This document shows positions 2,185 through 19,167 of a stretch of DNA of 64,000 nt, piece by piece; the stretch's first letter is position 1; each line of letters begins with the position of its first letter. The DNA lies in the NCBI GenBank assembly GCA_963832835.1, contig CAWHVD010000001.1, positions 1,619,201-1,683,200 on the forward strand. The letters are read 5' to 3'. Both the position numbers and the translations under genes were made by a program. Origin of the DNA: an uncultured Chlamydiales bacterium (GTDB taxonomy: Bacteria; Chlamydiota; Chlamydiia; Chlamydiales; JAAKFR01). Below the pieces are notes generated by a model. That model was given only the letters and a program-made list of their open reading frames with translations, had not been told where the DNA came from and ran no database searches.

Positions 2185-2891
2185 TAAAAAAATTGGATGG
2201 TATAAAAGTGCTTGAAAGTCCATTAGCTGTTGAGTGCCGATCTGTTAAAAAGACTTATGGATCGGGAAGCTCACGTGTTGAAGCACTCCGAGGTGTAGAC
2301 CTCACTATCCCGCAAGGCGAACTTCGTTTGCTGATGGGCCCTTCGGGATCTGGGAAAACGACATTGATTTCGGTCATCGCAGGCATTTTAACACAAGATT
2401 CTGGACAGTGCATGATCCTGGGTACCGACCTCAATCATCTCTCGGACAAAGACAAAACCCACTATCGTGCCAACCATATTGGATTTGCTTTCCAAATCTT
2501 TAATCTCATCCCCATGTTAACAAACGAAGAAAATGTTTCTATCCCCCTCGTCTTAAATGGTGTGAAAAGAAGCATCGCTTTGGAAAAATCTAAACAACTT
2601 CTGATAGAGCTGGGATTGAGTGATAAATTAGGCACTTACCCCCCAGAGCTTTCCGGAGGACAACAACAACGTGTTGCCATAGCTCGTGCCCTTATCCACG
2701 ACCCCCCACTCATTGTCTGCGATGAACCAACAAGCTTTCTCGATCATAAAACAGGTACCATGATCATGGAGCTCCTACAAGAAATGGTGAAAAAGCGGGA
2801 TATCACCGTAATTGTCGTCACCCATGATCAGCGCATCGTCCCTTTTGCAGACAAAGTCGATTATTTGGAAGATGGCCAAATCACCCCGTAA
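2178..2891 (+). CDS. ABC exporter ATP-binding protein (DevA/MacB-ATPase-like)
   Basis: Walker [10 protein letters not shown], signature [15 protein letters not shown], Walker [10 protein letters not shown]. Start is uncertain. The ATG at 2178 lies inside the MITE tip. In-frame TTG 2193 or GTG 2208 are alternatives. The track start at 2079 is MITE-derived. Confidence 0.85.
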
Positions 2892-3053
2892 TACCATTTC
2901 CAGAAAATAAAGTCACAAATTGGCATTGTATAATACGCCATTTTTGAACGATCCTTTCTCGCTTAGGTGCAGAAACATAGGCTTCGAAACGATCATCCAA
3001 ATCTGTCATGTTACCCAGTACCACTTCATGACTTTATTTTCTGGAAATGGTAT
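2891..3053 (-). mobile_element. 163-bp MITE-like palindromic element, copy 2 (inverted relative to copy 1)
   Basis: Reverse complement of the copy 1 sequence. Flanked by TAA/TAA. The left TAA is the stop codon of the ABC ATPase. Confidence 0.9.
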
Positions 3054-8568: not shown

Positions 8569-8731
8569 ATACCCTTTCCAGAAAATAAAGCCATAAAGTG
8601 GTACTGGGTAACATGACAGACTTGGATGATCATTTCGAAGCCTATGTTTTTGCACCTAAGCGAGAAAGGATCGTTCAAAAATGGCGTGTTATACAGTGCC
8701 ACTTTATGGCTTTATTTTCTGGAAAGGGGAT
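8569..8731 (+). mobile_element. 163-bp MITE-like palindromic element, copy 3 (tips slightly degenerate)
   Basis: Same sequence family. Tips read ATACCCTTTCC / GGAAAGGGGAT. Flanked by TTA/TTA. Its right end overlaps the last codons of the minus-strand gene 8712-9329. Confidence 0.85.
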
Positions 8732-9329
8732 TACTTAAGATAAAAAAAAGCCCGAGGCTGATCAGCGCAGAGACAAAACACCAAAGGGAAATGAAAAAAG
8801 TGCGATCAATCCAAGCGATCAGGAGAGCGGAAGCGGCAAAAAGGAGGCCAAAATAGGATGTCTTGGGAAGGCTCGAAAGAAAAAAAGGAAATACTGTAGC
8901 AATGACATAACTCGCAAATAGGATGTCGTGGTTGTAAAAGTGGGGTGGATAGGCATAGTAGACACTTGCGCAGCTTATCGAGGCCGTCATATTCGGGATA
9001 GCAAAGCCAAGCATGCTGCTTATGATAAGACCGACCCCAAAGCAGATGGCAAGGGTTTGCTTAGACCAGGAGACCTCTTCTGCAAACCAGAAGGCAAACG
9101 GGATCCAAAGGGGCCAGCCTACAAACGCAAAAAACAGAAAAAGGCTTTTTGCAAAGTCGGGAGCTATGCCCAGCCACAAAAAACCCTCAGCTGCTTGTTG
9201 AATGGCAAAAAGTAAAGGGATCAGAGCTAGCGGCAAGAATTTTTTGTTCTGGGTGCGCAAGACGAGGGTGAGGCCCATCACTGCCAATACAGCAGAGGCT
9301 GAAAAGCTGGCGGTCGCAGAATAGCACAT
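8712..9329 (-). CDS. Polytopic integral membrane protein, unknown function
   Basis: ATG start followed by 5-6 predicted hydrophobic helices. I recognise no catalytic motif. The last ~6 codons and the stop lie inside MITE copy 3. Confidence 0.6.
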   Translation of the reverse strand: MCYSATASFSASAVLAVMGLTLVLRTQNKKFLPLALIPLLFAIQQAAEGFLWLGIAPDFAKSLFLFFAFVGWPLWIPFAFWFAEEVSWSKQTLAICFGVGLIISSMLGFAIPNMTASISCASVYYAYPPHFYNHDILFASYVIATVFPFFLSSLPKTSYFGLLFAASALLIAWIDRTFFISLWCFVSALISLGLFFILSNPLSRK

Positions 9330-9351
9330 GTCTTATCCTTATATTGGTAAG

Positions 9352-9433
9352 GTCATAAAGTTGAGGTTTTACTCTTGAACGAGCGTAGCGAGTTCCCTGG
9401 AGCGCTCAAAGGGATTTGCCTCAACTTTATGAC
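9352..9433. repeat. 82-bp interrupted inverted repeat immediately downstream of clpB
   Basis: Arms GTCATAAAGTTGAGG (9352-9366) and CCTCAACTTTATGAC (9419-9433) are perfectly complementary. The 52-nt interior contains a sub-hairpin (GAGCG...CGCTC). It begins 4 nt past the clpB stop. Confidence 0.7.
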
Positions 9434-9436
9434 GCC

Positions 9437-12034
9437 CTATACCGGCGCAAGCGATTCAAAAGCAATCTCGCTTCCCTTCATGTACAACCTAACATCGGTA
9501 TTGGGGAGAATCTTTCCCTCTAAGAGGGCTCTAGATAACTTGCCAATCACTTCGTGCTGGATGAGGCGTTTGAGGGGCCTGGCTCCAAATGCGGGGTCAT
9601 AACCCTCTTTAGCCAAATGGTGTATTACAGATTCGTCCCATGAAAGGTGGATGAAACGTTCACATAAACGGGCAACCACATAGTGCATTTGGATCTCGAC
9701 AATTTTGGCCATGTCCCGTTCATGCAGGGGTAGGAAAGGGAGAATTTCATCGAGACGGTTGAGGAACTCGGGACGAAAATGTTGAGCCAGGGTGGGCTCA
9801 ATGATGGCCAGCACTTCTTCTTTTGTCACTTCCCCACGGTGCTTTTCGAGCACCTCCATAAGTTGTTGGGAGCCTAGGTTTGAGGTCATAATAAATAGGG
9901 CATTGCGGCAATTCACGCGCCGCCCTTTACTATCGGTCAGGCGTCCCTCATCAAAAATTTGCAATAGAATATTGAAAACGTCATGATGAGCCTTTTCAAT
10001 CTCATCGAGAAGCACTACAGCATAAGGGCGGCGGCGGATTGCCTCTGTTAGCTGCCCACCTTCGTCGTAGCCAATATAACCAGGAGGAGAACCGATGAGT
10101 TTAGAGACGGTATGTTTTTCCATGTACTCGGACATGTCAAGACGGATCATCGCGTCTTCTTTATTAAAGAGCTGCTCAGCTAGGGCTTTGGCAAGCTCGG
10201 TTTTTCCGACACCTGTTGGACCTAAAAATAGAAAAACTCCAATGGGTCGGTTGGGATCGTTGAGTCCAGCCCGAGATGCCCTTATGGCATCACTGACAGC
10301 TTTCACAGCAAAGGGCTGGCCTACAACCCTTTTTTCGAGCGTTTCTTCCAGGTGAAGGAGCTTACCCGCTTCGCCCTCAAGCATCTTTTGCACAGGGATC
10401 CCTGTCCATTTGGCGACAATCTGGGCAATGAGTGATTCATCTACCTCTTCTTGAAGAAGGCGATTCTCCTTTTTGTTGAGCTCTTGGCCCATTTCCTCGA
10501 TCTCTTTTTGCAGGGCCGGAATCCGGCTGTAGCGTAGTTCTGCTACCTTATTGAAATCAGAAGCCCTTTCTGCCTCTTCTTCTTGAAAACGGAGCTTCTC
10601 GAGCAAATCTTTTTTCTCTTTAAGCGCTGTTAGAACCTTTTTCTCGTTGTCCCACCTTTGTCGCAAGAGCGCAAGCTCCTCTTTTAGATCGACAATTTTC
10701 TTCTCTAGTATTTTCACTTCGCTTTGAGCTGATGGGGTATCTTCATGTTTCAAAGCTTCCTGCTTCACAATCAACGAGGCCAGTTCACGTTCCTTCAAAT
10801 CAATGGGCAAAGGACGGGAGCCCAGTTGCATCCGGATCAAGCTGGCCGCCTCATCGATGAGGTCAATCGCTTTATCGGGCAAAAAGCGGTCAGCAATATA
10901 GCGGTTTGAAAGCATCACCGCGGCATGCAAGGCGCCTTCGGTGATGCGCACACCGTGATAGATCTCGTAGCGTTCCTTCAAACCACGCACAATCGCAATC
11001 GCATCTTCTAAAGAAGGCTCTGCAATATAAACAGGTTGGAAACGGCGCTCTAAAGCAGGATCTTTTTCGATATACTTTTGGTATTCGTTAAGTGTTGTCG
11101 CGCCGATACAATGGAGGGTGCCGCGTGCAAGTGCCGGTTTTAGAAGATTGGCCGCATCCATCGCTCCTTCAGCAGCTCCTGCGCCTACCAAAGTATGCAC
11201 CTCGTCGATGAACAGGATAATCCTACCCTCGCTCTTTTCGATCTCTTGCAAAATCGATTTAAGCCTCTCTTCGAATTCTCCGCGGAACTTCGTTCCGGCG
11301 ATCAAGCTTCCCATATCAAGAGCTACAAGCTCTTTATCTTTCAAAGAGTCTGGGACATCTTTTTGGAAAATCCGTTGAGCCAACCCCTCTGCAATTGCCG
11401 TTTTGCCCACCCCAGGCTCGCCGATAAGCATGGGGTTGTTTTTAGTACGGCGGCTGAGTACTTGGATCGTGCGGCGGATCTCTTCATCGCGCCCAATGAC
11501 AGGATCGAGCTTACCCTCTCGCGCAAGCTTTGAGTAGCTTTTGCAATATTTTTCTAAGCTTTTCATGCTCCCTTCGGCAGTGGGCGAATCCATATGACGC
11601 TCTCCTCGTATTTTTTGAACCGCTTCTTGAAGTTGTTTCAAGGATATACCCGTCTGTTTTTTCCAGGAAGCAAAAGGCTCTGCCGCTCCTTGCCAAAAAC
11701 TCAACAGGAAATGATCACTCGACACATAGGTGTCTTTCATTTCTTTGGCAAAATTCTGCGCTTCGCCCACACGGCTTTGCAGGCTTCTTGCCGCTTGTGG
11801 CTCGCCACCTTCTCCCGAAAAAGTAGGTAGCTTGGTAAGCGCTTGTTCTACTTGGGCCTTTAATAGTGCAGGATCTGCCTTAAGCTCGTTTAATAAAATG
11901 TTGAAATACCCTTGATGATCTTCTAGAAAGGATAAAAGCAGATGATTTTCAGAAACTTCGGTATTTTTTCTTGTCTGAGCAATTTGAAACGCCCCTTCCA
12001 GGGCCTTTTGGACAGCTTCGGAGTAGTCGGCCAT
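9437..12034 (-). CDS. clpB: ATP-dependent chaperone/disaggregase ClpB
   Basis: Two AAA+ modules ([18 protein letters not shown]) separated by a long coiled-coil M-domain. ATG at 12034 is preceded by GGAGGTG; the track start at 12046 is GTG. Confidence 0.95.
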
Positions 12035-12060
12035 GTTCACCTCCACATCAATGATTCCAC

Positions 12061-12089
12061 ACTATACCATAAAGGTTTTTTAGCGCTAA
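12061..12089 (-). promoter_or_regulatory. Candidate sigma-70-type promoter for clpB
   Basis: On the minus strand, TTAGCG - 17 nt - TATAGT lies about 25 nt upstream of the clpB RBS. Motif match only. Confidence 0.3.
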
Positions 12090-12140
12090 AGGAGCCTTGC
12101 GAAAACCGACCAAAATAAGACATGTCGTATAACGATCGTT

Positions 12141-12677
12141 ATGAAAAGGATCTATCAGGAGCTCATCGCCCACCACCTCACTGAGTATCGTCAAATGGTT
12201 TTTTTGATGGGACCCAGGCAAGTGGGAAAACCATCATTACTTCAATTGGGATAATTCTGCACAGAGGTTGCTCTTTATAGAGGGACCTCAAGCTATTGCC
12301 AAGCAGGTTGGGCTCGAAGAATTGAGTGACAAGATACCTATCCTGATTTTTGATGAGATCCACAAATTTGAAAAATGGAAAAACTTCCTCTTTGGAATGA
12401 TCGAGGGTTTGGAGAATATGGCCTTTATTATTTACGTACGAAGGACAAAATCGAGGTCGACTTCTTGGTTACAAAGAATGAAAAACCGTGGTTCCTAGCC
12501 GAGGTTAAAACAAAAGCAAAAGGGATCTCTTCAGCGCTCTATCATTTCCAAAATGAAACGGGGGCAATGCACGCTTTTCAAGTAGCCTTTGATCTTCCCT
12601 TTGTGAATAAAAACTGCTTCGATGAAAATAACTCCATTCTTGTGCCAGCCCAAACTTTGCTTTCACAACTTGTTTAA
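12141..12677 (+). pseudogene. Degraded AAA+ ATPase gene (DUF4143-type ATP-binding protein) remnant
   Basis: ATG 12141 encodes MKRIYQELIAHHLTEYRQMVFLMGPRQVGKPSLLQLG then a stop (Walker A remnant). Later fragments in two other frames carry ILIFDEIHKFEKWKNFL (Walker B region) and a C-terminal YLRTKDKIEVDFLV...EVK module. Total length is far short of an intact homolog. Confidence 0.7.
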
Positions 12678-13840: not shown

Positions 13841-13960
13841 GCAAGTGATTCTAGTCAAAAAATATTAATGTTACGTTAAGATCTGAAAAGTGAAATGAAA
13901 AGTGAAAAGTGAAGCGGGCGGTTCGGAATTAAAAGCCCGCCCATTAAAGGGCTCGAGTTT

Positions 13961-14122
13961 ATATCATTTCCAGAAAATAAAGTCATGAATTGGTACTGGG
14001 TAACATGACAGATTTGGATGATCGTTTCGAAGCCTATGTTTTTGCACCTAAGCGAGAAAGAATCGTTCAAAAACGGCGTGTTATAAGTGCCACTTCATGA
14101 CTTTATTTTCTGGAAATGGTAT
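13961..14122 (+). mobile_element. 163-bp MITE-like palindromic element, copy 4
   Basis: Same family. Left tip is ATATCATTTCC. Flanked by TTA/TTA. Intergenic between rlmI and the GGDEF-EAL gene. Confidence 0.9.
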
Positions 14123-14333
14123 TATTAGCTATCAGAGCATCAAGCGATGAGTCTCATTTTATTTTAAGGCAAGATATGGAGCGCTTTAGAGCCGAAGGAC
14201 ACATTATACGCATCCTCAATCTTGAAGAATGCAAGTCATTCACGTTAGGAAAGCTTATGAACACTACTGAAAGCCTCAAAAAGCTGAAGGAAAAAAGCAG
14301 TCCTCCTCAGGATAAGGAAGGAAAAAGGTGCGA

Positions 14334-16568
14334 TCAACACTTCACGTGAATGCCATCCTTCAATAAAAGGGTGTAGGCATTTGCATCAATAGGTTTGCTG
14401 AAATAAAATCCTTGCATTTCATCGCACTGATTTTCTAAAAGAAAGCGATATTGCTGTTCAGTCTCAACACCTTCGGCAACCACCTTCATGTTAAGGCTAT
14501 GAGCCATTGAAATGATCGCTAGGATAATAGGGGTTTCAATAGGATCTGTCTCTATGTTCCCAATGAAACTTTTATCTATTTTAAGTTTTGTAATTGGATA
14601 ATGCATCAAGTAATTTAAGTTTGAATATCCTATTCCAAAATCATCAATTACAAAAGAGACGCCCCTATCCCGAAGGCTTTTAAAAATCCCTTTAATTTCA
14701 TCAGAGCTTTCCATCAAAACATTTTCGGTCAATTCAAGCTCCAGATACTTTCCTTCATAGCCTATTTCATCCAAAACTTTCTCAATCATTTTGATGGAGT
14801 CAACATTTTTTACCTGGTATCCAGACAAGTTAACGGCAATAGGAACGAGGGGCAAACCATTCTTTTGCCACTGCAAATTCTGTTCGCAAGCCGTACGTAG
14901 TACCCATTCACCAATAGGAATAATCAATCCTGTCTCTTCAGCAATCGAAATAAATTTCTGTGGTGCGATCATGCCCAGTTGGGGATGCCGCCACCTCAAA
15001 AGGGCTTCTGTTGCCCTGAATGTCTGGGTCTGAACATCCAGGATGGGTTGATAATAGAGGAGCAGCTCGCCCAGCTTATAGGCAAGGATTAAATTTTGCT
15101 CCATGTCTAAAAGCTCTCTCACTTGAGAATTCATATCGTCGGTATAATACTGAAATGTATTTTTACCCATCGCCTTAGCTCTGTACATGGCTGCATCGGC
15201 ATTTTTGAGCAATTCGTCTGCAGTAGTGCCATTTTTTGGGAAAAAACTGATGCCTAAGCTGGGGGTTATGGATAATTGTTGATTATTAATCATAAAAGGC
15301 GTACGGAATGCTTCTTGTATTCTTTTGACGGTAAAAAAAGAAAGGTTTTTGTCCTGCATGCCAGGCAAAATTAAAACAAATTCATCCCCTCCAACCCGGC
15401 ATAGAGTGTCCGATGCTCGTTTACAGCCCAGTAATCTTTCAGCTACCACAGTCAAAAGCTCGTCCCCAAAATTATGTCCCAGACTGTCGTTGACAATTTT
15501 AAAACGGTCCAAATCCAGGAAGATGACGGCAATTTGTGTTTTATCCCTTTCAGCCTGAAAAATCGCCTGCTGCAAGCGGTCGACAAGCAACATGCGATTG
15601 GGTAAATGGGTTAATGGGTCATGGGTAGCCTGAAAGGTAAGCTGCTCTTCAAAATACCGTTGTTCGGTAACATCGCGAAAATTTAATACTCTTCCGATAA
15701 TATGTCGTTCCAATTGCAACGGACGGGTATAGAATTCAAGAACTTTCCCATTTTTTAAATGGAGTTCCAATCTTAATTCACCGTAAGCCGTTTCATCAAA
15801 ATTATAAATTAAATCTTCAAATGTGGGTTTCACAATATGCCCATCCTCCACATTGGAAACGATAAAAGCGATGAACTCAGAAGTATCTTTATGCTTTAGA
15901 ATAGGCTCAATCCCCTCATTGTTCCCTGTCAGATTGCTCCAAAGCTTTTGAAAATTCAGGTTATAGTCAATGATTTTAGATTCCTTGCTGATTACCAGGA
16001 TACCATCGGTTGTCGCTTCAAGAGTTGCTCGAATCTCCGCTGTCCTCTCTTCGACCATCGATTGGAGACAATCGAGCTTAAAACGACTTTGCTGCAATAG
16101 TTTCCATTTTTCTTGTAGAGCACTGGCCAGTTGATGCACTTCAATGCTGTCGAAGGGCTTTTTCAAAATCAGCACGCGGTCGCTCCATCCGAGCCTTTTA
16201 GTCATCTCATGCCACGTGTAATCACTATACGCAGTGCAGATAACAGTCTGAATATCCGAATCAACTGCTAAAATCTTTTCGATTGTCTCAACTCCATCCC
16301 AGCCGGGAGGCATGCGAATATCAACAAAAGCGAGAAAATAAGGGCGCTTCTCTTCTAAAGATTTTTGAACCTTCTGAAGACCTTCCTCTCCTTGGAAGGC
16401 TGAATCAATATCATACTCAGGGGTCTTGGTACTTTGTTCGTTTTCCCCAAAGACCGCTTCTTTTAGGCTACTCAAATGCTCATCGGAAGCTGCCAAAACC
16501 TTGCGGTAATCATTATGGATGTCTTTGTTATCATCAATAATAAGGATACGATTCGCATAAGATTCCAT
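14334..16568 (-). CDS. Response regulator with REC-PAS-GGDEF-EAL domains (putative bifunctional diguanylate cyclase/phosphodiesterase)
   Basis: REC domain (FVDIRMPPGWDG). I-site RASD followed by RVGGDEF. EAL motifs are all intact: EALLRW, ELTE, DDFGIGYS, KIDKSF, AEGVET, QGFYFSKP. ATG directly abuts the upstream kinase stop (TAAATG). Confidence 0.9.
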   Translation of the reverse strand: MESYANRILIIDDNKDIHNDYRKVLAASDEHLSSLKEAVFGENEQSTKTPEYDIDSAFQGEEGLQKVQKSLEEKRPYFLAFVDIRMPPGWDGVETIEKILAVDSDIQTVICTAYSDYTWHEMTKRLGWSDRVLILKKPFDSIEVHQLASALQEKWKLLQQSRFKLDCLQSMVEERTAEIRATLEATTDGILVISKESKIIDYNLNFQKLWSNLTGNNEGIEPILKHKDTSEFIAFIVSNVEDGHIVKPTFEDLIYNFDETAYGELRLELHLKNGKVLEFYTRPLQLERHIIGRVLNFRDVTEQRYFEEQLTFQATHDPLTHLPNRMLLVDRLQQAIFQAERDKTQIAVIFLDLDRFKIVNDSLGHNFGDELLTVVAERLLGCKRASDTLCRVGGDEFVLILPGMQDKNLSFFTVKRIQEAFRTPFMINNQQLSITPSLGISFFPKNGTTADELLKNADAAMYRAKAMGKNTFQYYTDDMNSQVRELLDMEQNLILAYKLGELLLYYQPILDVQTQTFRATEALLRWRHPQLGMIAPQKFISIAEETGLIIPIGEWVLRTACEQNLQWQKNGLPLVPIAVNLSGYQVKNVDSIKMIEKVLDEIGYEGKYLELELTENVLMESSDEIKGIFKSLRDRGVSFVIDDFGIGYSNLNYLMHYPITKLKIDKSFIGNIETDPIETPIILAIISMAHSLNMKVVAEGVETEQQYRFLLENQCDEMQGFYFSKPIDANAYTLLLKDGIHVKC

Positions 16569-17951
16569 TTAAGCCTGAATTTGTAAGTTTAACGTGAAGG
16601 TTGCTCCTTTTGCAGGACCGTAGCTTTGACAGGATAATTTACCCCCCATCTCCTTTGCTAAAAGCGCACATGTGTGCAGGCCAAAACCATGGCCTTCCTT
16701 CTTGGTTGTAAAACCAAAAGAAAATATATCTGGGAGATGCTCGCTTGTAATTCCCATTCCATTATCAACTAATTCAATTTGACATGTATTTTTATCTTTA
16801 ATCATTGTGCGGAAAATCAATTGTTTCTGAGGCGGACATTTTTCTTTCAAAGAATCGAGAGCATTACGGATAAGGTTCACCAAAATCTGAAGGAGTCTAG
16901 CTCGATCGATAGAAATCTCTGGTGCTGGGGCATATTCTCGAATGATTTTAACATTATATTTTTGGAATTCCTTTGAATGCATGGAAATTAATTCGTCCAA
17001 TAGTTCATTAATGGATACTTTTTCTTTAATCCCAAGAATGATACCCGTCGCTTGCTGGACTGTGATGATACTTTTAATATGCTGGACATTTTTTTCTAAC
17101 AAATCCAGCTCATTCAAGTTTCTTTGATTTTCTTTTTCCCAACATTCGGAAAGGGCTATTAACAAATCAGGTAAACGATTACCCCTGGGGTCTTTTTCTA
17201 TATAGGTACCCAAATCATCCTTATGCTCTCTGATCAAATTGGCGATTTTCGGCAGGCTCCGAAGCTCTGTATGACAAACATTTTCTCGAAGAAGACCCAC
17301 TGAAACATTAACCGTTGTCAAGACATTGCCGACATTATGCAATACACTTGTCGCCATTTCCATCATGCCGATCTGCCTGGCAGCTGTTGCTAATTGTTTC
17401 TGCAGTTGAAGCTCCCTTAGTTGGGATTGTTCTTGTTCCTTCCGCAGCGTGATATCGCGCAATATATAAATTCTCAATTTTTTTTGGCCAACAGTGACCT
17501 CAGAGGTTGAGAGCTCAATAGTTAATGGCAAGCCATCCGGCTGTTTTAATGAGGAGAGCTCGTATAAACCATGACTTGATGGCAGGATAGTCAATGTTGG
17601 CATATCTTTTCCGATAAGCTCAGTCTCAGCGCCGAAGCCTAAATAGCGGGCAGCTATATAATTGCAAATCTCAATTTTTTGGTTTTCATTGATGACCAAA
17701 ATGCCATCTGATGCAGCTTCCAAAATGGAGTGTAAGAAATATTCCTTCGCTTTAAGCGCATCTCCTGCTTCTAGTAGTTCTTGAGTGCTGATTTCTAACG
17801 ATTGTTTTCCTAAAGCATGGTCGCGTTCATAGTGTTCATAGGAACGGTTAATGGCATCCAAGAGATCTTTTAGGCCTGGAGTTAAAGAGGTGTCGGTCTT
17901 TAAATACCGTTTCAACTGTCTTGTCAGTAAATTTGTATATTTAGAGTCCAA
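16569..17951 (-). CDS. PAS-domain sensor histidine kinase (atypical H-box SVLHNVGNVL)
   Basis: PAS region, H-box ATSVLHNVGNVL (His codon near 17337-17339), N-box LVNLIRNALDS, G-boxes DNGMGI and GHGFGLH. The only available start is TTG at 17951, 1 nt after the FIST gene stop. Confidence 0.85.
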   Translation of the reverse strand: MDSKYTNLLTRQLKRYLKTDTSLTPGLKDLLDAINRSYEHYERDHALGKQSLEISTQELLEAGDALKAKEYFLHSILEAASDGILVINENQKIEICNYIAARYLGFGAETELIGKDMPTLTILPSSHGLYELSSLKQPDGLPLTIELSTSEVTVGQKKLRIYILRDITLRKEQEQSQLRELQLQKQLATAARQIGMMEMATSVLHNVGNVLTTVNVSVGLLRENVCHTELRSLPKIANLIREHKDDLGTYIEKDPRGNRLPDLLIALSECWEKENQRNLNELDLLEKNVQHIKSIITVQQATGIILGIKEKVSINELLDELISMHSKEFQKYNVKIIREYAPAPEISIDRARLLQILVNLIRNALDSLKEKCPPQKQLIFRTMIKDKNTCQIELVDNGMGITSEHLPDIFSFGFTTKKEGHGFGLHTCALLAKEMGGKLSCQSYGPAKGATFTLNLQIQA

Positions 17952-17952
17952 A

Positions 17953-19101
17953 TTACTTCTCTACAATGGTCGTAATGGTCATCGTTTGGTTGTGGAGCTT
18001 ACAATTGGCCAAAGGAGCTGTTGGAGCAATTTCTCCGTAAGAATAAAATCCGGCGATCGTTGTTTCATTCCCAATGAGATCTTTAACAATTTCGATCTCT
18101 TCTTCGGCACGGGGGCCTAAAACAATACGACGGCCTACACAACTGATCAAAATAGCTAGATCTGGGGTTTCCCTGTCCACCATTTCCAAACTATACAAAG
18201 CTGCGCGAAAGGCCCCGTCCACAAGACGATCGAAATTCGCTTTCATGAGTTGTGCATACCATCCTTCGGGCATGTTGCCGGCAAATACCATCCCTTGGTT
18301 TTTTTCATCAATGCTTAAAATTGTCCGAACAAGGGCCCTAGATTGTCTATCGGGCCGGATTGCAAGAGGAAAGAGCATAGCCGAACTGGGAAGCTCTCTG
18401 GCTTGTTCACCTAAGTATTTTTTATAAAGATCAAGCGCTGATTTGTTATCTAATTCGTAGAGAATATTCGATGAGGAGCGCGTAATTTTTCTTTCGATCC
18501 CAAAAGGATCCCACCCACCTACAGAGCCACATCCAAATTTAAGATGAGAGCTATAAAAACCAACGATGACAATTTCACCTTCTTGCGGAGGGGCATTTGC
18601 ACCCACAACTGTTTTTTCAAAACGGGTGCCATCACCGGCTAGCCCTCCTGTGATGCTTACAGATTTGGGAAGAGTTCCTGATAAGCCCTTGATCAGATCA
18701 CTTCCATTGACAAGATGCCCATCAGCAAACAAAAATACGTGCTTTAAGCCATTTTTAGGCAGCTTTTTCCCCAATTTCTCTCCGGCAAGGGAGCTATTTC
18801 CTGCTTCGGAGAGGCTAATCCTGTGAACTTGCAATTCTAAAGGTTTTTCAAAAAAAATTGCGGTTACAACAATTGATGCATCATCCAGGTTTGTTCCTTT
18901 AATATTGCCAGCAGTAGAGGCTAAAATGATATGCGCATGCGGAAAGGCATCTTTCAATTCTTCAAATCTTTTTGGATCACTTAAGATAAACCGGTCACCG
19001 AATGCAAAGACAAGTTGAATGTTTTTTTTATCTAGAGAAGAAGTATCCTCAGACCATCCTTTGTCTTGGGACCATTTTTGCTGTAGAATTTTCACAGGCA
19101 T
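17953..19101 (-). CDS. FIST-domain (FIST_N + FIST_C) sensory protein
   Basis: Length and motifs match FIST proteins. The C-terminal IAGFYSYGEIAP...LHNQTMT is characteristic of FIST_C. Confidence 0.8.
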   Translation of the reverse strand: MPVKILQQKWSQDKGWSEDTSSLDKKNIQLVFAFGDRFILSDPKRFEELKDAFPHAHIILASTAGNIKGTNLDDASIVVTAIFFEKPLELQVHRISLSEAGNSSLAGEKLGKKLPKNGLKHVFLFADGHLVNGSDLIKGLSGTLPKSVSITGGLAGDGTRFEKTVVGANAPPQEGEIVIVGFYSSHLKFGCGSVGGWDPFGIERKITRSSSNILYELDNKSALDLYKKYLGEQARELPSSAMLFPLAIRPDRQSRALVRTILSIDEKNQGMVFAGNMPEGWYAQLMKANFDRLVDGAFRAALYSLEMVDRETPDLAILISCVGRRIVLGPRAEEEIEIVKDLIGNETTIAGFYSYGEIAPTAPLANCKLHNQTMTITTIVEK

Positions 19102-19167
19102 CCTTGTTTGCTAAAAGATTAATTATACTGAAAAAGAAAAAAAGTACTAGCACGTGTTTTATCTCGG

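Follow-up and report, generated by a model that had tools for sequence, protein, structure and literature searches.

Among characterised signalling systems, the closest to the operon analysed here is nosP-nahK-narR of Legionella pneumophila (lpg0279-lpg0278-lpg0277), whose genes are co-transcribed and whose kinase and response regulator are Lpl0330 and Lpl0329 in Lens (PMC11237717, bioRxiv 10.1101/604611). Nitric oxide (NO) binds to NosP, a stand-alone FIST protein. NO-bound NosP alters the autophosphorylation of NahK, and NahK phosphorylates NarR, a bifunctional diguanylate cyclase/phosphodiesterase (DGC/PDE) of cyclic di-GMP (c-di-GMP) whose cyclase activity is lower in the phosphorylated state (PMC11237717, PMC8846402, PMC8738867). 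Lpl0330 contains an atypical HisKA-like region that domain databases lack, and its two conserved histidines are H210 (the phosphorylation site) and H296 (bioRxiv 10.64898/2026.02.27.708494); the response regulator Lpg0277 has been mutated at D87, E396 (GGDEF) and E521 (EAL). Here we describe three adjacent genes at positions 14334-19101 of a 64-kb stretch of DNA, referred to as the window, from an uncultured Chlamydiales bacterium (contig CAWHVD010000001.1). They encode a FIST protein and a histidine kinase, together with a response regulator that has GGDEF and EAL domains, and probably constitute an intact NosP-NahK-NarR-type signalling operon that reached an environmental member of the Chlamydiota by horizontal transfer.

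Organisation of the operon

All three genes are on the minus strand, flanked by a candidate promoter region and a candidate terminator:

19102-19167, minus strand, upstream intergenic region of 66 nt and candidate operon promoter, with a perfect TATAAT at 19127-19122 and an AAGGA ribosome-binding site
17953-19101, minus strand, FIST gene, open reading frame (ORF) of 382 aa; probable true start GTG 19095, giving 380 aa
16569-17951, minus strand, kinase gene, 460 aa, TTG start
14334-16568, minus strand, gene for the response regulator/c-di-GMP enzyme, 744 aa
14302-14320, minus strand, terminator-like hairpin with T-run from a terminator scan, 14 nt past the response-regulator stop codon

An earlier sequence-only reading of this DNA had described three minus-strand genes packed with 1-nt and 0-nt gaps, and the junctions read exactly so: TAAtTTG between FIST and kinase, TAAATG between kinase and response regulator. 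The more likely start of the FIST gene is GTG 19095, because this is the database gene call, homologues have 'MKI...' N-termini, and AAGGA is located 5 nt upstream. A scan for consensus promoters did not call a full promoter within 19102-19167, where the -35 element is weak. Terminator-like sites in the region are not more numerous than in shuffled sequences, and the candidate at 14302-14320 is backed by its position. None of the three proteins (0/3) contains a hydrophobic stretch of membrane-spanning length. An assembly artefact or chimera was considered and ruled out, since the same genes fill the same slot both in L001, an independent assembly of this genome, and in L082, an 87%-identical relative that comes from a different sample.

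The response regulator has predicted cyclase and phosphodiesterase domains

Pfam detects Response_reg (E 4.2e-08), GGDEF (8.1e-47) and EAL (9.5e-70) in the response regulator, which is laid out as follows:

aa 7-146, REC domain, with D12, D13, D83, T112 and K137
aa ~180-305, PAS-like linker, PAS_7 at 18.7 bits against a cut-off of 27 (sub-threshold), near-complete profile coverage
aa 314-470, GGDEF domain, with I-site R384xxD387 and G393GDEF
aa 496-726, EAL domain, with E521, N580, E612, D642, D643, K663, E699 and Q719

The proposed FIST / PAS-kinase / REC-PAS-GGDEF-EAL operon is thus complete by Pfam, apart from the PAS domain of the response regulator, which stays below threshold. Every catalytic hallmark that had been quoted for the two output domains was found: RASD at 384 (five residues ahead of GGDEF at 393), EALLR at 521, ELTE at 612, DDFG at 642, KIDKSF at 663, AEGVET at 698 and QGF at 719. 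The GGDEF-EAL half aligns end to end over 417-424 residues with the solved structures 5m3c (E 6e-117) and MorA (4rnh, E 6e-114), and all catalytic motifs match. The sequence contains the residues expected of a diguanylate cyclase (G393GDEF; LDLDRFKIVNDSLGHNFGD, which supplies the DxD/N/D substrate- and metal-binding positions; R384ASD387) and those expected of a c-di-GMP phosphodiesterase (E521, N580, E612/E615, D642-D643, K663/D665, E699/E702 and Q719). Judged by these residues, the enzyme looks catalytically competent. A weak Pfam similarity to HNOB on the REC region (E 0.006) was put down to chance.

Such an enzyme could nevertheless be effectively one-way, for instance a phosphodiesterase under phosphorylation control whose GGDEF domain does no more than bind GTP or c-di-GMP allosterically, or it could be a c-di-GMP-independent regulator. 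Many tandem GGDEF-EAL proteins behave in this manner, the best full-length NCBIfam similarities of the response regulator are to phosphodiesterases such as DibA, PRK10060 and DosP, all under their cut-offs, and the window holds no other c-di-GMP gene. We regard this alternative as unlikely, since alignment to the bifunctional MorA shows an intact GGDEF A-site, intact Mg/GTP-binding residues and an intact RxxD I-site, the homologous enzyme of Legionella has both activities in vitro, and an I-site is sensible only where c-di-GMP is made. If the genome had no other cyclase, a pure phosphodiesterase would be without substrate.

The sensor belongs to a FIST subfamily distinct from curated NosP

FIST membership was defined by scores above the Pfam gathering cut-offs for both PF08495 and PF10442. 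The protein encoded by the first gene scores 141.2 bits for FIST (FIST_N; E 4.8e-41, cut-off 23.2) and 118.8 bits for FIST_C (E 2.3e-34, cut-off 28.5). Against the NCBIfam NosP equivalog NF041558 it scores 38.6 bits where the cut-off is 450, in a full-length match of residues 45-359 to positions 40-353 of the 368-position profile. The NosP model gives 58-87 bits for five further members of this subfamily, one of them from a Legionella plasmid. The subfamily is widespread: among the at least 600 matches listed by a FIST-alignment scan of the genome collection, members about 50% identical come from dozens of phyla, with CPR bacteria and archaea represented. The matches listed included neither the window genome nor any member of the Chlamydiota, so they carry no information on the spread of the subfamily within that phylum, for which contigs anchored on ClpB were used. 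These genes almost always precede a partner gene, often with overlapping stop and start codons.

Residues H121, C321 and H370 are invariant between the FIST protein and 22 homologues. Its AlphaFold model (pLDDT 88.5) most closely resembles, among solved folds, the FIST domain of human FBXO22, followed by chorismatase and then cyanuric acid hydrolase; a PDB sequence search with the protein gave no match, and no bacterial FIST structure has been solved. The sequence-only reading had stated that the ligand of such a sensor is not known. That view is outdated, as haem and NO are known ligands of NosP-type FIST proteins (PMC11237717, PMC12570481, PMC8846402). The window protein appears to be a stand-alone NosP-like FIST_N + FIST_C sensor, and by analogy it may sense haem or NO.

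The same architecture could also serve a FIST protein that detects a cue other than NO (labile haem, redox state or an unrelated small metabolite) and so reports host-cell or nutritional status. The distance of the subfamily from curated NosP points in this direction, as do the induction of the Legionella operon by amino-acid starvation via RpoS and the small-molecule enzymes, chorismatase and cyanuric acid hydrolase, that stand next to FBXO22 among the nearest solved folds. Against it, the biochemically characterised FIST sensors paired with kinases have all been reported to be haem/NO responsive, and a haem or metal ligand would be compatible with the invariant residues H121, C321 and H370. 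On balance we consider a non-NO cue possible but doubtful.

An atypical histidine kinase links sensor and output

Pfam detects HATPase_c (E 2.9e-17, 63.5 bits) and PAS (6.5e-05) in the kinase and finds no match to HisKA. Behind an N-terminal module, which is considered separately below, its domains are:

aa 72-166, PAS domain
aa 168-304, atypical DHp domain, with H205 in the H-box SVLHNVGNVL, a helical insert at 229-258 and a second conserved histidine, H291
aa 309-457, CA domain

The unusual H-box was already remarked on in the sequence-only reading, and its H205 is invariant; 14 of the 16 family sequences retain H291. The full set of kinase boxes is present, with H205, N359/N363 (NLIRNA), the G1 box D396xGxG, the F box F410/GFTT and the G2 box G420HGFGL. 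In the AlphaFold model (pLDDT 78) the DHp domain forms a hairpin in which α1, with H205, and α2, with H291, are separated by an additional helical insert. The insert explains both the 86-residue spacing of the two histidines and the failure of the Pfam HisKA model. As judged from its sequence, the protein is a cytosolic sensor histidine kinase of the NahK/Lpl0330 type.

A parallel with Lpl0330/Lpl0329 had been drawn from the sequence, with Lpl0330 taken for a FIST-containing kinase. The parallel is stronger than was claimed and extends to gene order, histidine spacing and response-regulator residues. Lpl0330 itself has no FIST domain: in Legionella the FIST protein is the separate upstream product Lpg0279, which is NosP (bioRxiv 10.1101/604611; PMC11237717).

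A conserved helical module opens the partners of FIST proteins

The kinase begins with a short helical segment:

17742-17951, minus strand, N-terminal helical module of the kinase, ~65-70 residues, with a helix at 4-17, a loop, and a long helix from residue 25

In the kinase model the module is formed by a short helix and a long helix that continues into the PAS core. Its consensus over ~65 residues is LLxRQLKR...P.E...F..AV..AY...D.DR.MLERSLELSSQELL.AN, and no Pfam family covers it. In 76 of 80 loci (L002-L081), which come from many phyla, the module opens the gene immediately after FIST regardless of the output domain. A search of 1.84 billion representatives placed it at residues ~2-67 in essentially all of the 222 library matches. 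The domains found among 77 partners are HATPase_c (56), canonical HisKA (49), GGDEF (10), EAL (7), SpoIIE (4) and an HD-type domain (1), and some partners of the subfamily are direct PAS-GGDEF-EAL proteins. This position and distribution suggest that the module may be a docking site for FIST. A universal docking domain would account for the connection of a single sensor family to outputs as different as kinases, cyclases, phosphodiesterases and SpoIIE phosphatases in dozens of phyla, and if confirmed it would help the NosP/FIST field with the mechanism of signal transfer.

The operon was acquired by a chlamydial genome

The host genome is chlamydial, as had been proposed, because of the relatives of its ClpB and the synteny around that gene. 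ClpB, encoded 2.3 kb from the operon, is 89% identical to a protein from a 'Chlamydiota bacterium' and 72-77% identical to those of Chlamydiales, Parachlamydiales and Protochlamydia, and all of its named relatives are Chlamydiota. On relative contigs anchored by ClpB, the type III secretion genes CopN, CesT and SctV adjoin it. The backbone common to these relatives reads UbiD, L28, Lpd-like, transglutaminase/TPR, slot, PUA methyltransferase, ClpB. In the window the slot is occupied by one block:

13859-19167, inserted low-GC block of 5.3 kb, comprising the operon and a 475-nt tail, between the transglutaminase/TPR and PUA-methyltransferase genes

The contents of the slot vary among relatives:

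L082 (Lpd/TPR identity 95/92%): the operon
L086 (Lpd/TPR identity 81/75%): empty, with the TPR and methyltransferase genes adjoining
L087 (TPR identity 75%): unrelated genes, including a 1802-aa ORF without a Pfam match
L088 (Lpd/TPR identity 77/67%): unrelated genes

GC content runs at 0.37-0.44 inside the block and at 0.47-0.50 outside it; the block as a whole is at 0.41 (GC at third codon positions, GC3, 0.37-0.42) compared with 0.47-0.48 (GC3 0.46-0.49) for the flanking genes. The operon is horizontally acquired, since the slot lacks it in L086, L087 and L088 and its GC content is lower. One copy of a dispersed repeat (13961-14122, see below) lies at the downstream edge of the block, and no convincing direct repeats or target-site duplications were found at the block edges. 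The most economical reading is a single gain in the common ancestor of the window organism and L082, with the operon kept under selection from then on.

In comparison with L082, the three operon genes have dN/dS values of 0.13-0.27 at a dS of ~0.5, which is similar to the flanks. The operon is therefore under purifying selection. That bears on whether it might be a decaying or silent transferred relic with no present function, as its foreign composition, its position in a variable slot beside a mobile repeat and the lack of a visible downstream effector in the window could suggest. A relic would not be expected to hold three intact ORFs with every catalytic residue kept, to preserve overlapping or abutting stop and start codons, and to have such dN/dS values over this dS, and we consider this explanation very improbable.

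Relatives of the operon and its source

Homologues of the FIST protein and the kinase were collected as the best 120 matches for each. The two genes are neighbours in all close relatives, and FIST, kinase and response regulator diverge in step, with identities of 88/76/87%, 69/56/66% and ~48/35/38% in successively more distant relatives. The nearest relatives of the operon (56-88%) are chlamydial or metagenomic. One of them (L085, FIST 69%, GC 0.42-0.43) carries the whole operon in a different genomic context. In a metagenome-assembled genome (MAG) of Parachlamydiales (L083, FIST 64%), positions 9280-12537 of a 689-kb contig hold FIST and the same type of kinase without the GGDEF-EAL enzyme; the alternative partner there is a divergently transcribed, REC-only protein of 223 aa that is 44% identical to the REC domain of the window response regulator. 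Two Ser/Thr kinases are also encoded near this FIST-kinase pair. Phycisphaerae/Planctomycetota and a gammaproteobacterial MAG also have the complete operon, at 46-50/33-36/36-39% identity (FIST/kinase/response regulator).

Exchange between amoeba-resident bacteria had been suggested from the likeness to Legionella, and this part of the sequence-only reading is not supported. Neither the FIST protein nor the kinase has a Legionella protein among its best 120 matches, which puts Legionella identity under about 52% (FIST) and 33% (kinase). A specific exchange between Legionella and chlamydiae would agree with an architecture and residue numbering identical to those of the Legionella system, with the clear acquisition of the operon in this lineage, and with the presence of a FIST gene of the same subfamily on conjugative Legionella plasmids. 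The plasmid FIST protein is, though, only 45.6% identical to the window protein, less than the values of 50-54% reached by Zixibacteria, Bacteroidota, Acidobacteriota and other groups among the matches listed. In addition, the closest relatives (56-88%) are chlamydial or metagenomic and include the Parachlamydiales MAG, the complete operon is also found in Planctomycetota, and the operon GC of 0.41 fits the 0.42-0.43 of the L085 organism. Legionella was accordingly rejected as donor, and we give very little credence to an exchange confined to these two groups.

The plasmid gene is a solitary FIST gene on conjugative Legionella plasmids of 144-150 kb, represented by L. pneumophila pLELO (L089, NC_018141.1, 82606-83772). 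Seven plasmids from L. anisa, L. longbeachae, L. sainthelensi and others are nearly identical to pLELO and also carry the gene. It has no adjacent kinase and is located among efflux and cation-transport genes beside a Tn3-family transposase. The plasmid collection contained no Legionella homologue of the kinase.

Proposed signalling route and its significance

The proposed route, set out on the model of the Legionella system, would begin with the soluble FIST protein sensing a small ligand, most likely haem-bound NO or labile haem by analogy to NosP. The FIST protein would dock on the N-terminal helical module of the co-translated kinase and thereby change autophosphorylation at H205. The phosphoryl group would then pass from the kinase to D83 in the REC domain of the bifunctional REC/PAS-like/GGDEF/EAL enzyme, tipping the enzyme towards synthesis or hydrolysis of c-di-GMP and thereby changing how much of it the cell contains. 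No sign can be predicted for this regulation, because the Legionella data conflict and the NosP proteins of other bacteria are inhibitory. In vitro, NO-bound Legionella NosP activates NahK and lowers DGC activity, whereas genetic results indicate that Lpg0279 seems to repress the system and that phosphorylation favours cyclase activity; in Pseudomonas and Burkholderia, NosP inhibits its kinase.

Several points weigh against this reading of the locus. Because 38.6 bits for the window protein and 58-87 bits for its subfamily compare with a cut-off of 450, the subfamily is homologous to curated NosP yet distinct from it, so that haem or NO binding would be an extrapolation. The literature searched defines no haem-ligating residue of NosP, which makes a comparison of FIST pockets impossible. 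Tandem GGDEF-EAL proteins often act in effect as monofunctional enzymes even when their motifs are intact. The 64-kb window contains no c-di-GMP receptor (PilZ or other), no c-di-GMP riboswitch and no second GGDEF/EAL gene. Finally, the link to Legionella rests on architecture and residue numbering rather than on a comparison with the lpg0279-lpg0277 sequences. Even with these points taken into account, we continue to regard an intact, acquired NosP-NahK-NarR-like operon as the probable interpretation.

What is noteworthy is the occurrence in Chlamydiota; the mechanism itself is already known and not new. Chlamydiae are a textbook case of pared-down signalling, and to our knowledge the members of the phylum that have been studied make c-di-AMP and no c-di-GMP. 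The statement in the sequence-only reading that pathogenic Chlamydiaceae lack GGDEF/EAL proteins is backed by the literature, and GGDEF/EAL proteins go unmentioned in the main chlamydial pangenome paper (PMC8242063). An intact operon that is kept by selection would mean that some environmental chlamydiae have re-acquired a c-di-GMP second-messenger layer, and it offers a testable candidate for how an obligate intracellular bacterium may perceive a host signal, for example NO or haem. In Legionella the homologous operon acts in differentiation into resilient forms, which has been put forward here as a parallel for a chlamydial developmental or persistence switch. A broader proposal combines a working chlamydial c-di-GMP circuit, in which a host NO or haem cue times such a switch, with, as a separate matter, the partner module being an undescribed universal FIST-docking domain; it is speculative and, in our estimation, rather unlikely. 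Since c-di-GMP is an agonist of STING, a circuit of this kind could alter how the host perceives the bacterium.

Other features of the window

The window contains eight copies of a dispersed repeat of ~165 nt that resembles a miniature inverted-repeat transposable element (MITE), with terminal inverted repeats of ~37 nt and the arm core ATTTCCAGAAAATAAAGTCATGAA. The approximate ends of the copies are:

2022-2184, MITE-like repeat
2891-3053, MITE-like repeat
8569-8731, MITE-like repeat
13961-14122, MITE-like repeat
24541-24703, MITE-like repeat
30721-30883, MITE-like repeat
50566-50728, MITE-like repeat
59793-59955, MITE-like repeat

The repeat arms match 16 times in the window (0 expected); the copies stand in both orientations, and all are intergenic or at gene ends. 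Rfam contains no match to the repeat, and the loci of relatives lack it; the independent assembly L001 breaks at two of its copies.

A 100-aa ORF at 12375-12677 (plus strand) lies in the gap between ClpB and the methyltransferase gene, where L086 has a 257-aa DUF4143 gene and a gene of the Legionella_OMP family. The ORF may be a gene remnant, in which case this gap would be a second variable spot. Three eukaryote-like or effector-like genes, at 24966-25943 (minus), 25985-27085 (plus) and 60428-61477 (plus), encode PI3/PI4-kinase-domain, PLD-family and dual-specificity phosphatase-domain proteins; the PI3/PI4-kinase gene is conserved in L086. A 1255-aa ORF at 34965-38732 (minus) has no Pfam match at E <= 1e-5. 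Adjacent genes for tRNA-Ile(GAT) and tRNA-Ala(TGC), a pair usual in rRNA spacers, are located at 62010-62166 (minus), and the window contains no rRNA gene.

Comparison with known systems

The window operon shares with Legionella NosP-NahK-NarR the order of its co-directional genes for a FIST protein, a cytosolic kinase and a REC-GGDEF-EAL protein. As in Lpl0330, its kinase has an atypical H-box that Pfam HisKA does not cover, and a distance of 86 residues separates the two conserved histidines (H205/H291 here, H210/H296 there, a correspondence of residue numbers and not of alignment). Residues D83, E396 and E521 of its response regulator correspond to D87, E396 and E521 of Lpg0277. The two systems differ in their hosts, an obligate intracellular member of the Chlamydiota here and a gammaproteobacterium there, and in spacing, as 22 nt separate lpg0279 from lpg0278 whereas the window genes abut with gaps of 0-1 nt. 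The RpoS control described for Legionella cannot apply as such in the chlamydial host.

More distant likenesses connect the operon to other sensors coupled to c-di-GMP. In P. aeruginosa NosP-NahK and B. pseudomallei NosP-NosK-NosR, an adjacent FIST haem/NO sensor likewise controls histidine-kinase autophosphorylation with c-di-GMP-related outputs, but the kinase is a hybrid that feeds Hpt/RsmA or the response regulator is a degenerate HD-GYP protein, and the window sensor, far under the NosP equivalog cut-off (38.6 versus 450 bits), belongs to another FIST subfamily. The H-NOX/HnoK/HnoB pathways of Shewanella and Vibrio also run from a soluble auxiliary gas sensor through a cytosolic kinase to a REC-containing c-di-GMP enzyme; their sensor has an unrelated fold (HNOB, not FIST) and their output is EAL-only. 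The catalytic half of the window response regulator aligns with MorA (4rnh) and 5m3c, both of P. aeruginosa, with all motifs conserved, although those enzymes are fitted with membrane or PAS sensor modules rather than with a REC domain fed by a FIST-linked kinase. CdpA couples a FIST sensor to c-di-GMP turnover as well, in this case as a single-polypeptide fusion that dispenses with a phosphorelay.

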